From a virus, in the IMG/VR virus record IMGVR_UViG_3300048694_000674, positions 32,001-96,000 of that record: DNA of 64,000 nt. One strand, written 5' to 3'. This document shows positions 1,533 through 34,344 of this stretch, piece by piece (within the stretch, counting starts at the first letter, position 1; each line of letters begins with the position of its first letter). The notes under the pieces were generated by a model. It did not search any database and was not told where the DNA came from. It was given only the letters and a program-made list of their open reading frames with translations. A program made the position numbers and the translations under genes.

Positions 1533-2050
1533 TGCAGGTTAATACAGATTCATCTTTCTTAACTAAAGACATGATCAAGAAGATCGAGAAAGCGCGCAAC
1601 TGTAAGTATGTGTTCGAATCTTGCTTGAAGACTGTCGATGGTGGATGGTTCAATGGTCCAGCTGCTATCTTTTATAACGAAGAGAAGCATCCAACTGGTT
1701 CTAACTATATGGCTGTCTATGTTGATGGTAGGACTCTATATCTCGCCGATGGCATTTCAGCTGTCGATAATGTGATCTATGAAGGTATTGAAGCTGAAGG
1801 CGAGGTAGTCTATTCTCGTTACCGCCATGACTTCCGCGAGCATAAGAATGGTGCATACATCGACGGCGGTCGCGATTATACTAAAGTTGGTGGCGATAAG
1901 TTCAATGACTATAATCTGGTTCAGTTCAAAGTCGTTGGTGGTAAAATTGTTTTCATCGCAAAAGACGAAAAATGCGCTGGTGGTAACTGGCGTTCACAAT
2001 GTGATGATTGGAAATGTGTTGGAGGGTGTCGAAACGAAAAGGAGAAATAG
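1529..2050 (+). CDS. Hypothetical protein with SRYRHDF...IDGGRDY motif
   Basis: ORF coupled to the upstream stop (TTGATG overlap; ATG at 1532 possible); motif typical of a small phage protein family of unknown function. Confidence 0.8.
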   Translation: MMQVNTDSSFLTKDMIKKIEKARNCKYVFESCLKTVDGGWFNGPAAIFYNEEKHPTGSNYMAVYVDGRTLYLADGISAVDNVIYEGIEAEGEVVYSRYRHDFREHKNGAYIDGGRDYTKVGGDKFNDYNLVQFKVVGGKIVFIAKDEKCAGGNWRSQCDDWKCVGGCRNEKEK

Positions 2051-2356
2051 ATGTTCAAACGAGTATTGCTTATAGCATCATTACTGCTGCTTCCGTCAAC
2101 AGTATATGCTCAGACTTCTTGTGGCAAGACGGAAGACATTGAGGATGTGCTAAAAGCAACTGGTTATGAACCTTTGTTGAGATCGCTAAACTCGCCGACG
2201 AACCAAGTACTGCTTTGGTTCAATAAAGACAAAAGAGTAATAGCTGTATTGGCAGCTCCTCTTACTGTCGGTAAACCAACTGAAATTTGTTTTGTCGATA
2301 GACTGGTCGAGGTACAATTAAACCTTGACTTATTACAGGAATTAATGTATCATTAG
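2051..2356 (+). CDS. Hypothetical exported protein
   Basis: GGAG RBS; classical signal peptide MFKRVLLIASLLLLPSTVYA-Q; two Cys. Confidence 0.8.
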   Translation: MFKRVLLIASLLLLPSTVYAQTSCGKTEDIEDVLKATGYEPLLRSLNSPTNQVLLWFNKDKRVIAVLAAPLTVGKPTEICFVDRLVEVQLNLDLLQELMYH

Positions 2357-2368
2357 AATATAGGATAT

Positions 2369-2475
2369 CGTCTTCACCACAAGCACCACAGACAGAGTGA
2401 CACGTAAGATGACTGTGCATCTGAGGGTCGGGATTCTTTGCCTTGGCAACACCGAGGGTGCTTTTGATGGAGACG
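2369..2475 (+). ncRNA. Putative structured RNA closed by an acceptor-stem-like ACCA/UGAU helix
   Basis: CGTCTTC-ACCA-C-AAGCACC (2369-2387) pairs with GGTGCTT-T-TGAT-GGAGACG (2457-2475); internal hairpins AGATG/CATCT, TCGG/CCGA, TTGC/GCAA; non-coding. Confidence 0.55.
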
Positions 2476-2485
2476 AATAAATAAA

Positions 2486-2820
2486 TTGCTGAGGTCGTTG
2501 AGGCGTTCAGAATAGACGTTTCGGACGGGAGGGCAGTACTCCCCCAGTCCACCATAGATACACTGGTCGTTGGGTGCAACAGTCCTCCTATTATAAAGAG
2601 GGTATGGCAGAAGAGACTAGTATATAACTGTTAGCACTGGGCAAAGCGGTGTCTCACAGTGTATCTTTGATGGGCTGGAAATCAGGTTCGACGGGATGTA
2701 GTAAAGGTGCGAAGAGACCAAAAGCAACGTTCAGATGCAAACGATAATGCACCTATCACTCTGGCACTAGCTGCCTGAGTATGAGCTTCGGGGCTGAGCT
2801 TGGAAACAGAATCAGCCCCA
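2486..2820 (+). ncRNA. ssrA: Circularly permuted (two-piece) tmRNA, alphaproteobacterial type; tag ANDNAPITLALAA
   Basis: Acceptor piece ~2486-2554 ends in T-arm GGGAG-GGCAGTA-CTCCC plus CCAGTCC-ACCA. Coding piece starts GGGCTGG at 2672, giving G3-U70. Tag reading frame 2737-2778. 3' hairpin GGGGCTGA...TGGAAACAGAA...TCAGCCCC (2790-2819). Confidence 0.95.
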
Positions 2821-2851
2821 CAAATTCCATTTACAACAAGGAGTATATAAT

Positions 2852-3067
2852 ATGAGCGCAGCATTTGATGAATTGTTAGTAAAGTATATCGACTTGAAGA
2901 ACAAGTATGATAATCTCTCTAAGAGTCTTGGTGGCAGCACTATCTCGCTATCAGGAGCTCCCCAAACTTTCTTAACAGAACCAGCACCAGCTCCATATGT
3001 TAAGTCAGGTTATACGGTCTCAGTTAATGCCATTTCTACTGACACTGTTAAGTTACTCGATAGTTAA
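2852..3067 (+). CDS. Hypothetical protein (71 aa)
   Basis: AAGGAG RBS, ATG start, short coiled-coil-like N-terminus. Confidence 0.75.
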   Translation: MSAAFDELLVKYIDLKNKYDNLSKSLGGSTISLSGAPQTFLTEPAPAPYVKSGYTVSVNAISTDTVKLLDS

Positions 3068-3075
3068 TCCATATT

Positions 3076-3152
3076 GGTCTCTTAGCTCAGTTGGATAGAG
3101 CAACAGCCTTCTAAGCTGTGGGTCATTGGTTCGAGTCCAATAGAGATCGCCA
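3076..3152 (+). tRNA. tRNA-Arg(UCU)
   Basis: Cloverleaf: acceptor GGTCTCT/AGAGATC, D-arm GCTC/GAGC, anticodon arm ACAGC-CTTCTAA-GCTGT, T-loop TTCGAGT, encoded CCA. Confidence 0.97.
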
Positions 3153-3167
3153 TTTCTCGGAGCGCCT

Positions 3168-3377
3168 ATGCAAACGACGAAAATAATCCGCGATATACCT
3201 TTGGGTGTATTGATGTTAGTGGTGTCCCAGTTCTTCATTTATGGAGCATTGTACCTATCGAAGTTCCCAAATGTATTCGAATTTCTTGGTATTATGTTTT
3301 GTGTATGGGCGACTGGATTTTTGACTGACTTAGGCATCCGAGTTATTAAAGGAATTGAAGTTGCTGAATCTGAGTAA
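3168..3377 (+). CDS. Small membrane protein, two TM helices
   Basis: GGAG RBS; two hydrophobic stretches. Confidence 0.7.
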   Translation: MQTTKIIRDIPLGVLMLVVSQFFIYGALYLSKFPNVFEFLGIMFCVWATGFLTDLGIRVIKGIEVAESE

Positions 3378-31566: not shown

Positions 31567-34344
31567 TTGGCTGAGTTAAATACTACAACTACTACTCAAA
31601 CTTCTACAACAGCGCAAGATGTTACTAATTTAGTAGTTAGTACACAAACCAGCACACAAACTGTTGGCAATTATGTAACAGATGTATCAATAAATCCATA
31701 CATCAAGTCTCAAACCATTTATTTTTCTGCATACAATCTACGTCCAGGGCAAACGATCCATGCGTTTTTTGACAAAGTTTTAGTTGATCAATATTGCGCT
31801 CCAGGCGATCCTAGCAACCCATCAGTAGATAGTAATGGTTTAAAAACATTTCCTCTAACAGCAGCATTTGGTTCTCCTCTTGTTGTTGACAGTAAAGGAC
31901 GTCTTGCTGGCGCTTTCACAATTCCTGAAGGAATGTTCAAAACAGGAGATAGAACATTCGAATTAGCTGATGCTGATAATCTAGCAGCAGCTGCAGACGC
32001 AATTTCAACTAAGGCGTTTTCAACATTCACTGGATCTCATCTTACGGTAACAAAACAGGCTGTTACTCTCACAACAATAAATCCAGTAATCTCAACATCA
32101 ACATCTACAATCACTTCAAGTAGCACACAATCATTCGTAAACACACAAACAATACCAGATAATGTTATAACACAAACAATTTATAACGATATTGCTAATA
32201 CTACAACAATACAAAATCCTTCAAGTACAGTATATAACTTTATTGTTCAACAAACTTCTGACACTAATGGTCCAGAAAACAACAGTGGAGCTGCGGACGA
32301 TCCAATCGCTCAGTTTTTCAGAGTAAACACTGGCGAAAGTTCATCAGGTGTATTTGCTACATCTCTGGAAATATATTTCAAACAGAAGCCAGCTACAAAC
32401 ATTAATGGTGTTACTGTTTATATTTGCGAACTTAACAATGGATATCCTGATAGCAGTAAAATTCTTCCTTATTCAATAAAACATCTTACATGGGATAATA
32501 TTGTTGTAACTACTGATTCAACAACATCAACTAAGTTTACATTCGATTGTCCAATATTCATGAACAACAACAAAGAATACGCTTTTGTTGTGAAGCCAGA
32601 CAACAATGATGTCGATTACTGGGTATATTCTGCAGAGCTTGGTGAAGTTGATCCATATCAAAATATTCAAGTATCAAGTATACCAGTTGTTGGTACTGCA
32701 TTCTATAGCGCAACAGAAAAAGCTTGGACAGCTCTACAAACAGAATATATTAAGTTCAAATTAAATGTTGCTCTGTTCGCAACATCTGATACAGGAACAG
32801 CGTATTTCAATAATGATGATAAAGATTATCTTACGGTATATAACGTTGGTAGAACAGCTGCTAAAGATATAACTCCAGGAGATTATGTTTTCCAAGCATC
32901 AAATTCAACTCCATCAACAGCAAACACCAAAATATTTGGTGTACTGAAATCATATGATGATGTTAATGGAATTATGTATGTACTGAATACTTCTGGAAAT
33001 AATTATACTTCAAATACTTATCTTCAAGTACATAGATTTGCTAACTCTTCTGTTACAATCAACGGAACAAATGTTAATACAAGTACAATTATTGCTTGGG
33101 CAAATACAGGAAGCTTCCATACTCCTGTGATTGATGCAGCTCAAATTCGTTTTGCTCCTATGACTCCAGGTGGTACAAACATCACTTATGGTTATCAGGG
33201 TACAAGCAATGCATATGTAACTGAATCAGGATATAATAACGTTGTACAGGGATACGAAAGAGAATTCAGAGATCAGGAAAGAATCGTTGCAAGTTATTCT
33301 GACCCATCTGCTCCAGCTAACTATAGTGCACAAATTAAAGCAGATTTGTCGACAATATCTGTATATACATCTCCTGTTATTGACTTGACATCATCAAATA
33401 TGTTCACATACAAGAACTTGGTTGATCCAGTTGCGTTCAATTATGGTGAATATCTTAACAATGGTAATTCATCAACGAAGTATGTTTCTCAGGTAATTAC
33501 ACTCGCTCCAGGTCAGGATGCTCAGGATCTTCAGGTTATTGTTACTGGTAGTCGTCCTGTTGGAACTGATATCAAAGTTTATGCTAAATTCCTTAATGCT
33601 CAAGATGGCGAAACTATCATTGATAAGTCTTGGTCGCCATTGTATAATTCAGGTTATGACACCTATACAGATCCAGCAAATATTGGAGATGTGAAGGAAT
33701 ATACATTCAAAACATTCCCATACTATGGATTGGTCAAAACATCTGGCACTATTTCTACCAGCGGTACAACTGTAACTGGTGTAGGTACAGCATTTGATAC
33801 AGAGCTCGCTGTTGGTTGGTATATCAATATGGCAGCTACTGCTACACAGCAGGAAACATCAAGAAAAGTTGTTGCTATTGCTAATAGCACTTCATTGACT
33901 CTTGATAGTGCATTTACCTATAGTTATTCTGGGCAACCATACTATCTTGTTCCACCACCAACCACAGCTTATAGATCTAAGTACAGTAATACTGCTCTTG
34001 CTGGAACTGTTTCTACATATACTACAAATAATAGTATTATTGGTAACGGGACTAACTTTACTGGCGATTTCCGCGCAGGTAGTATCATTTACGTAAATGG
34101 AGACAGCCAAGTTATAACTTCTATTGCTAACTCTACTTTATTGTATGTTGGTAAACCGTGGACAGCAAATAATAGTAGCAATGTTTATAGCATTCAGACG
34201 CTTGCTGGTATGACATATCTGAATAACAACAACAATCTTTATACGAACTACAAGCAGTTCCAGCTAAAGGTTATCCTCCAATCTAATGATAGCTCGAAAG
34301 TTCCAATTCTACAGGATGTTTCGGCAGTGGCTCTACAGCTGTAA
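31567..34344 (+). CDS. Large virion structural protein, DUF4815-like C-terminal part
   Basis: DPIAQ.F, G.F.TS...YF, T.F.F..P, SP.IDL, F.QFQ.K....S.....P motifs; own AGGAG RBS and TTG start. Confidence 0.82.
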   Translation: MAELNTTTTTQTSTTAQDVTNLVVSTQTSTQTVGNYVTDVSINPYIKSQTIYFSAYNLRPGQTIHAFFDKVLVDQYCAPGDPSNPSVDSNGLKTFPLTAAFGSPLVVDSKGRLAGAFTIPEGMFKTGDRTFELADADNLAAAADAISTKAFSTFTGSHLTVTKQAVTLTTINPVISTSTSTITSSSTQSFVNTQTIPDNVITQTIYNDIANTTTIQNPSSTVYNFIVQQTSDTNGPENNSGAADDPIAQFFRVNTGESSSGVFATSLEIYFKQKPATNINGVTVYICELNNGYPDSSKILPYSIKHLTWDNIVVTTDSTTSTKFTFDCPIFMNNNKEYAFVVKPDNNDVDYWVYSAELGEVDPYQNIQVSSIPVVGTAFYSATEKAWTALQTEYIKFKLNVALFATSDTGTAYFNNDDKDYLTVYNVGRTAAKDITPGDYVFQASNSTPSTANTKIFGVLKSYDDVNGIMYVLNTSGNNYTSNTYLQVHRFANSSVTINGTNVNTSTIIAWANTGSFHTPVIDAAQIRFAPMTPGGTNITYGYQGTSNAYVTESGYNNVVQGYEREFRDQERIVASYSDPSAPANYSAQIKADLSTISVYTSPVIDLTSSNMFTYKNLVDPVAFNYGEYLNNGNSSTKYVSQVITLAPGQDAQDLQVIVTGSRPVGTDIKVYAKFLNAQDGETIIDKSWSPLYNSGYDTYTDPANIGDVKEYTFKTFPYYGLVKTSGTISTSGTTVTGVGTAFDTELAVGWYINMAATATQQETSRKVVAIANSTSLTLDSAFTYSYSGQPYYLVPPPTTAYRSKYSNTALAGTVSTYTTNNSIIGNGTNFTGDFRAGSIIYVNGDSQVITSIANSTLLYVGKPWTANNSSNVYSIQTLAGMTYLNNNNNLYTNYKQFQLKVILQSNDSSKVPILQDVSAVALQL

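Follow-up and report, generated by a model that had tools for sequence, protein, structure and literature searches.

A 64,000-nt stretch of viral DNA (IMG/VR record IMGVR_UViG_3300048694_000674, positions 32,001 to 96,000; hereafter the window) contains a two-piece tmRNA gene and, just upstream of it, a second hairpin with the same base geometry as the processing helix of the tmRNA precursor. This arrangement raises the question of whether the phage has reused the helix as a device of its own, or whether the upstream element is a displaced part of a tmRNA gene.

The window comes from a 141-kb genome (IMG/VR) of a T4-like phage, in which a gp59-type helicase loader and gp32 are encoded just 3' of the tmRNA region; the gp32 proteins find their nearest cultured matches, at about 60% identity, in T4-like cyanophages, and the public runs place the phage in freshwater. 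Rfam detected a circularly permuted tmRNA of the alphaproteobacterial type at 2493-2778 (RF04321, 81.5 bits; RF01849, 71 bits) and a tRNA-Arg at 3076-3149. ARAGORN made no tmRNA call for 2493-2822 despite the good Rfam score, perhaps because the intervening segment (IVS) is 117 nt long, and in a blastn comparison of 2000-3200 with cultured phages the tRNA-Arg was the sole match, with the tmRNA unmatched. Two-piece tmRNAs are already known in phages, from the related marine pelagimyophage/Melnitz group (PMC9004378). The parts of the resident gene are as follows.

2493 to 2554, + strand: acceptor piece of the tmRNA, with the T-arm, CCAGTCC and ACCA (Rfam).
2555 to 2671, + strand: IVS of the resident tmRNA, allele A, 85% identical to the IVS of the related locus L007.
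2672 to 2822, + strand: coding piece of the tmRNA (Rfam and translation), with the tag ANDNAPITLALAA encoded at 2737-2778.

The surroundings of the gene vary between strains. Contigs of three runs (X1, X3 and X4) join 2785 to 3074, leaving out 2786-3073 of the window, which indicates co-occurring strains that have no 71-aa ORF at 2852-3067 and carry the tRNA-Arg directly 3' of the tmRNA. On the other side, the 101-aa ORF at 2051-2356 has homologues of about 73-84% identity, from metagenomes only; the next gene is the tmRNA in some relatives and a 319-aa ORF in others, pointing to a variable gene neighbourhood.

The upstream element reads CGTCTTC-ACCA-C-AAGCACC (2369-2387) ... GGTGCTT-T-TGAT-GGAGACG (2457-2475), and the tmRNA hairpin reads CCAGTCC-ACCA-T-AGATACACTG ... 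CAGTGTATCT-T-TGAT-GGGCTGG (2544-2678). Common to both are a 7-bp stem, an ACCA/UGAU pairing (A-U, C·A, C-G, A-U), a 1-nt mismatch and a helix of at least 7 bp. RNAfold returned an identical bracket pattern at the base of the two hairpins, ((((((((.((.(((((((, with folding energies of -38.1 kcal/mol (z -2.9) for the upstream element and -50.6 kcal/mol (z -4.1) for the tmRNA hairpin, and a fold of the entire 2360-2830 precursor retained both. The letters and the folds therefore agree with the preliminary description, which had read 2369-2475 and 2544-2678 as helices of the same geometry; its remark that the upstream copy has neither a T-arm nor G3-U70 also holds, since A3-U70 is seen instead and the 5' flank is AT-rich. 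The upstream element consists of three parts.

2369 to 2379, + strand: 5' arm, CGTCTTC (the equivalent of the 3' acceptor strand) followed by ACCA, aligning to CGCCTCC-ACCA of relatives.
2381 to 2463, + strand: inner helix AAGCACC (2381-2387)/GGTGCTT (2457-2463) with a unique interior that holds two sub-hairpins (RNAfold).
2465 to 2475, + strand: 3' arm, leader-like TGAT followed by GGAGACG (the equivalent of the 5' acceptor strand, with A3 for G3).

The element is not a tmRNA: T-arm and coding piece are both missing, and an A-U pair stands in place of G3·U70. Its acceptor-type pairs are G1-C, G2·U and A3-U70, not the G1-C72, G2-C71 and G3·U70 (alanine identity) of the tmRNA. In the place of a T-arm, AT-rich AATATAGGATAT lies directly after the ORF stop; on the 3' side, the match with the coding piece stops after GGAGACGAA and gives way to the late promoter of the resident tmRNA; and the sole tRNA-like domain placed by Rfam is at 2493-2554. 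A permissive Rfam search of 2200-2900 found nothing credible for the element, the best match being mir-2851 with 23.7 bits against a gathering score of 85. A 23-codon ATG ORF (2409-2480) lies inside the upstream hairpin and ends at the TAA of the late-promoter motif; having no evident ribosome-binding site, it is probably a chance occurrence. Two minus-strand ORFs (2262-2579 and 2342-2452), which overlap the tmRNA and the antisense of ORF 2051-2356, were set aside as spurious.

The base of the element was compared with the tmRNA precursors of relatives, for which 80 related IMG/VR loci were gathered through the 375-aa protein encoded at 405-1532, most of them with a tmRNA. Across about 65 related phage two-piece tmRNA genes, the base of the IVS always takes the form ACCA-N-helix ... 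helix-N-TGAT-GGG. Among 26 unique hairpins, A73-U(-1), C75-G(-3) and A76-U(-4) are paired in 92-96%, C74·A(-2) is mismatched in 24, and the inner helix covaries; G1-C72, G2-C71 and G3·U70 are invariant in the 26 unique tmRNAs of relatives. Judged from this alignment, the ACCA/UGAU base geometry is a family trait of phage tmRNA precursors. The inner helix occurs in two main types, AGATAC/GTATCT, as in the tmRNA of the window, and AAGCAC/GTGCTT, as in the upstream element, and the element matches the consensus of the IVS-hairpin family in all features (ACCA/UGAU, 1-nt mismatch, inner helix of at least 6 bp). When it is set against tmRNAs of the AAGCAC type, CGTCTTCACCACAAGCACC aligns to CGCCTCCACCACAAGCACT of locus L019 and GGTGCTTTTGATGGAGACGAA to AGTGCTTTTGATGGGGGCGAA, in a stretch that runs through acceptor strand, ACCA, helix, TGAT, acceptor strand and the first GAA of the coding piece, with no match in the T-arm or in the remaining coding piece. 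By this comparison, the upstream element is a homologue of the acceptor-stem/IVS hairpin of the tmRNA precursor. The link between the element and the tmRNA processing helix that had been proposed earlier is thus borne out as homology by the alignment and by the X3 contigs described below. The further step of reading the shared geometry as selection on structure does not follow, because the likeness reflects shared descent from a tmRNA allele and not convergence.

Contigs of a sister strain reveal how the element is placed. The X3 sequences are Logan contigs from an independent freshwater metagenome (a different sample and a different study) and are short and of low depth (4-6x); they define two further features.

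2360 to 2476, + strand: 117-nt insertion relative to the sister strain, an X3 contig joining 2359 to 2477 with a 3-nt junction ambiguity (ATA).
2375 to 2470, + strand: block common to the element and the tmRNA IVS of the sister strain (allele B), CACCA-C-AAGCACC...GGTGCTT-T-TGAT-GG, seen in X3 record 20.

The 2359-2477 junction of X3 restores a perfect TATAAATA, so that the upstream ORF is followed at once by the tmRNA promoter. In record 20, 2375-2462 stands between the acceptor piece (~2510-2549) and 2666-3110, differing at 3 of 88 nt (97% identical), and this order identifies the interior of the element as the tmRNA's own IVS in the sister strain, where it lies between CCAGTCC-ACCA and TGAT-GGGCTGG. 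The sister strains therefore carry allele B within the tmRNA and no orphan, whereas this phage carries allele A (like L007) within the tmRNA and allele B upstream.

Other relatives agree on the order without the element. In L099 and L100, which are 82% identical over ORF 2051-2356, the ORF stop leads directly into ATAAATA (GATAAATA) and the tmRNA; in L007, whose tmRNA is the closest one (85% identity, IVS included), a 336-aa ORF abuts TATAAATA, followed by the tmRNA with no element. Relatives with ORF 2051-2356 came from a protein database and its contigs, as an IMG/VR search with that ORF gave none. When the window is compared with the tmRNA loci of relatives, homology starts at about 2476. 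Conservation of the element, on which the idea of a functional cassette depended in the preliminary description, was not found: the element is absent from the sister strain, from L099, L100 and L007, and from the 80 IMG/VR loci. For the same reason the 2369-2475 helix cannot pass the covariation analysis that had been proposed for it, since no orthologues were found.

Scans for further copies gave the same result. A search of the 141-kb genome for a 7-bp stem flanking ACCA...TGAT returned five matches, compared with 0.4 expected from shuffles, and just two of the five, the upstream element and the tmRNA hairpin, also have the inner helix; shuffled sequence contained no hairpin of the full geometry. 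The element is single-copy in its own genome, where its flanking stem sequences occur once. Strict and relaxed hairpin scans of about 85 related loci found no second copy of it; the relaxed geometry scan of 85 loci gave 69 non-tmRNA-like matches against about 41 per shuffle replicate, none with the full score, and the matches other than tmRNAs are at background level. Exact and degenerate pattern scans of IMG/VR for the arms, the interior and a tmRNA with the GGAGACG stem returned nothing or chance matches in coding sequence, as did the same arm, interior and GGAGACG-stem patterns in JGI metagenome contigs, by inspection. The interior of the element had no IMG/VR match. Being absent from the sister strain and the other relatives, with no second copy found, the element is best described as a recent, singleton, ectopic IVS cassette.

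The transcripts that would include the element depend on the promoters on either side of it.

2325 to 2353, + strand: sigma70-like early promoter TTGACT-17-TATCAT (10/12 match), within the 3' end of ORF 2051-2356.
2332 to 2359, + strand: second early-promoter candidate, ATTACA-16-TAGAAT.
2476 to 2483, + strand: T4-type late-promoter-like motif AATAAATA for the tmRNA, immediately 3' of the element.

The same TTGACT-17-TATCAT lies directly 5' of the tmRNA in L099, and analogous TTGACx-17-TATTAT sites precede the gene in L015 and L024. The motif NATAAATA stands 3-5 nt 5' of the conserved start of the acceptor piece, TGCTGAGG, in nine distinct upstream contexts (L006, L007, L015, L018, L024, L043, L056, L057 and L099). 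In L015, L024 and L099, a sigma70-like TTGACx-17-TATxAT overlaps or abuts NATAAATA, which suggests that the phage tmRNA is expressed both early and late. With the insertion lying between the early and the late promoter, late transcripts would exclude the element and early or read-through transcripts would carry it.

A source for such a displaced hairpin is offered by the behaviour of the IVS in the relatives. Pairs of tmRNA genes with acceptor and coding pieces that are 95-99% identical have IVSs that cannot be aligned, and the edges of the variable region are exact, starting after ACCA| and stopping before |TGAT. Four different cassettes are present in L010 (8471-8567), L012 (8860-8932), L017 (8706-8805) and L019 (8741-8829), and the length of the IVS is 49 nt in L054 (7867-7937) vs. 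204 nt in L055 (2306-2531). Based on these sequence comparisons, the IVS of the phage two-piece tmRNA behaves as a discrete, hypervariable cassette that is replaced wholesale between otherwise near-identical genes. The 204-nt IVS of L055 also holds the start of an 84-aa ORF (L055:2330-2584) that reads on into the coding piece, and which may be either a gene that entered the spacer or a chance occurrence.

Combined, these results make it likely that the element is an ectopic, strain-specific copy of the IVS hairpin of a tmRNA precursor, a by-product of recombination and not a conserved device. The hairpin copied would comprise the acceptor stem, the ACCA/UGAU leader pairing and the base helix and interior of the IVS, and it would have arrived as part of the 117-nt insertion at 2360-2476, which is flanked by the sigma70-like early promoter and the tmRNA's late promoter. 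Its most likely source would be illegitimate recombination among co-circulating tmRNA alleles, in a population with very frequent exchange of IVS cassettes. Early and read-through RNAs would then bear the element as a 5' leader or a 3' UTR hairpin, where it may persist without harm, or be cut by the host enzymes that also remove the genuine IVS, in which case RNase P would act 5' of G2469 and the 3' end-maker after A2379; the element would be dispensable in either case. The direction of events, as read from outgroup parsimony, would run from the tmRNA allele to the orphan. The interior and the flanking genes are equally close to the sister strain, so the orphan is young, and its intact pairing is not evidence of selection.

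The outer stem is the part of the element that this origin explains least directly. Outside 2375-2470, the stem differs from that of the sister tmRNA at 4 of 6 positions on the 5' side and at 4 of 5 on the 3' side and is fully complementary, for which we estimate a chance probability of about 0.004, calculated as (6/16)^5 x 0.5. Set against the commonest stem, CGCCTCC/GGGGGCG, that of the element has four transitions, all of them pairing-preserving, with G3·U70 gone and G2-C71 weakened, and the 26 base positions adjoining these transitions are unchanged. Four pairing-preserving transitions would also fit selection under which the helix was kept and the tmRNA identity lost. A donor tmRNA allele with the GGAGACG stem was absent from the scans of IMG/VR and of JGI metagenome contigs, and the outer stem came either from an unsampled donor or from a reshaped stem, an alternative that keeps a functional explanation alive. 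Additionally, the inserted homology stops just where the helix does, at both ends, an agreement that random recombination would not predict. A MITE-like or cruciform-excision origin is speculation, with a second copy not found and a junction ambiguity of only 3 nt.

A functional explanation would hold that the RNase P/RCCA geometry has been kept and that host RNase P cuts 5' of G2469, freeing an early tmRNA precursor from its leader or from the mRNA of ORF 2051-2356 and perhaps releasing a small RNA of about 2380-2468. The geometry is identical to that of the genuine tmRNA site; all four stem differences from the consensus keep the pairing, with ACCA/UGAU and the inner helix unaltered; the position between the early promoter and the tmRNA means that early transcripts must carry the element; and bacterial RNase P can cut helices that have no T-arm and a 3' RCCA. 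Nonetheless, we consider this explanation rather unlikely, since only one copy of the element was found and neither the sister strain nor any relative has it, its interior, at 97% identity to the sister allele, is too young for its pairing to indicate selection and elsewhere occupies the excised-spacer position of a tmRNA gene, the T-arm is missing, the ACCA is predicted to be paired, and the late promoter bypasses the element. Cleavage by RNase P would be physically plausible and is not needed to explain the data. A broader version, judged quite unlikely, would make the IVS a mobile, autonomous RNA-processing cassette of freshwater T4-like phages that moves between tmRNA alleles and ectopic sites, with its stem reshaped, and acts as a self-removing 5' leader or insulator; if this were true, the ectopic stem would lose alanine identity and keep the RNase P geometry, and the orphan would be a captured intermediate in IVS turnover.

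The element could instead attenuate transcription, whether from the early promoter or from ORF 2051-2356, as a terminator or insulator that would leave the tmRNA to its late promoter, or it could stabilise the 3' end of the upstream mRNA in the manner of a T4-type promoter/stem-loop (PeSL) cassette. The hairpin lies 13 nt past the ORF stop and directly 5' of a promoter, a terminator-like CCTTGG-CAACA-CCGAGG (2441-2457) inside it is followed by GTGCTTTTGA, and PeSL cassettes mediate indels in the hyperplastic regions of T4-like phages (PMC4122927; PMC2839356), the element itself being at an indel hotspot. As a terminator the 2441-2457 site is weak, with a short U-run displaced from the stem, its four U's beginning 4 nt past the stem and belonging to the inner helix. 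A PeSL would be repeated, whereas the element is single-copy in the genome, and would have a stem-loop followed by an early promoter, whereas the order here is early promoter, hairpin, late promoter. With a sequence clearly derived from a tmRNA IVS, either role appears improbable. Mixed-strain metagenome assemblies can yield chimeras, and both IVS alleles co-occur in freshwater samples, so an assembly artefact or a chance hairpin was also considered. A Logan contig from the likely source run (X1 record 1; 4398 nt, depth 30), independent of the IMG/VR assembly, covers 1900-2544 with 0 differences, including the element and both junctions, which rules out misassembly; the flanking stem sequences are found nowhere else in the genome and the full geometry is absent from shuffles, arguing against chance. 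Together, artefact or chance is scarcely credible.

The origin from a tmRNA IVS favoured here can be set beside known systems. Permuted (two-piece) tmRNA precursors were reportedly described by Keiler et al. in 2000 and by Sharkady & Williams in 2004. The element resembles their IVS, as covered by RF04321 and RF01849, in the 7-bp acceptor-type stem, the 3' ACCA, the UGAU leader with its C·A mismatch and the AAGCAC/GTGCTT-type inner base helix, and its interior is 97% identical to the IVS allele of the sister strain; it differs in having no 5' T-arm and no 3' coding piece, in the changes of G3·U70 to A-U and of G2-C71 to G·U, and in lying outside the tmRNA gene, 5' of the gene's late promoter. 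RNase P substrates with a 3' RCCA and no T-arm include external guide sequence substrates, 4.5S RNA and the precursor of the P1/P7 C4 RNA, and work on such non-tRNA substrates and external-guide helices is said to go back to Forster & Altman in 1990, with T4 species 1 RNA reportedly also among them. Like these, the element combines a helix and its 3' RCCA without a tRNA body and could direct a cut 5' of a paired G; unlike these, it is not conserved, in the predicted fold its RCCA pairs with the leader, and it is known here from its geometry in sequence.

The 23S rRNA intervening sequences of bacteria are helical insertions of sporadic occurrence and hypervariable sequence that RNase III removes. 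Like the IVS, they are dispensable spacers that vary strongly, are cut out, keep a conserved helical base and are swapped among close relatives, but they involve another host RNA and, probably, other nucleases. To our knowledge, orphan copies outside rRNA genes are not a described feature of rRNA intervening sequences. Fragments and pseudogenes of tmRNA and tRNA genes that arise from recombination or island integration have been reported (Hudson, Lau & Williams 2014; PMC4131195), and the element is comparable to them as a partial, non-functional duplicate of a tmRNA gene beside an intact copy. The known fragments are gene ends displaced by integrase-mediated insertion, in contrast to an internal spacer hairpin bounded by both acceptor strands, found in a lytic T4-like phage with no integrase involved. 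With the PeSLs of T4-type phages (PMC2839356, PMC4122927), the element has in common that it is a small intergenic hairpin beside promoters, at an indel site in a variable T4-like region; it differs in being single-copy and tmRNA-derived and in the order of its parts. The maturation of permuted tmRNA precursors has been attributed in the literature to 'probably RNase P and tRNase Z' (PMC3985003).

Overall, the element gives no support to a phage strategy of 'small-RNA release cassettes', and taken alone it is a young and probably neutral by-product. As a fragment of a tmRNA gene, its chief value is as a marker of IVS swapping, showing that an IVS cassette can land outside the tmRNA gene with the processing geometry of the precursor fully kept. 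It is also a naturally occurring substrate for studying the requirements of RNase P and the 3'-end nucleases in the maturation of permuted tmRNAs.
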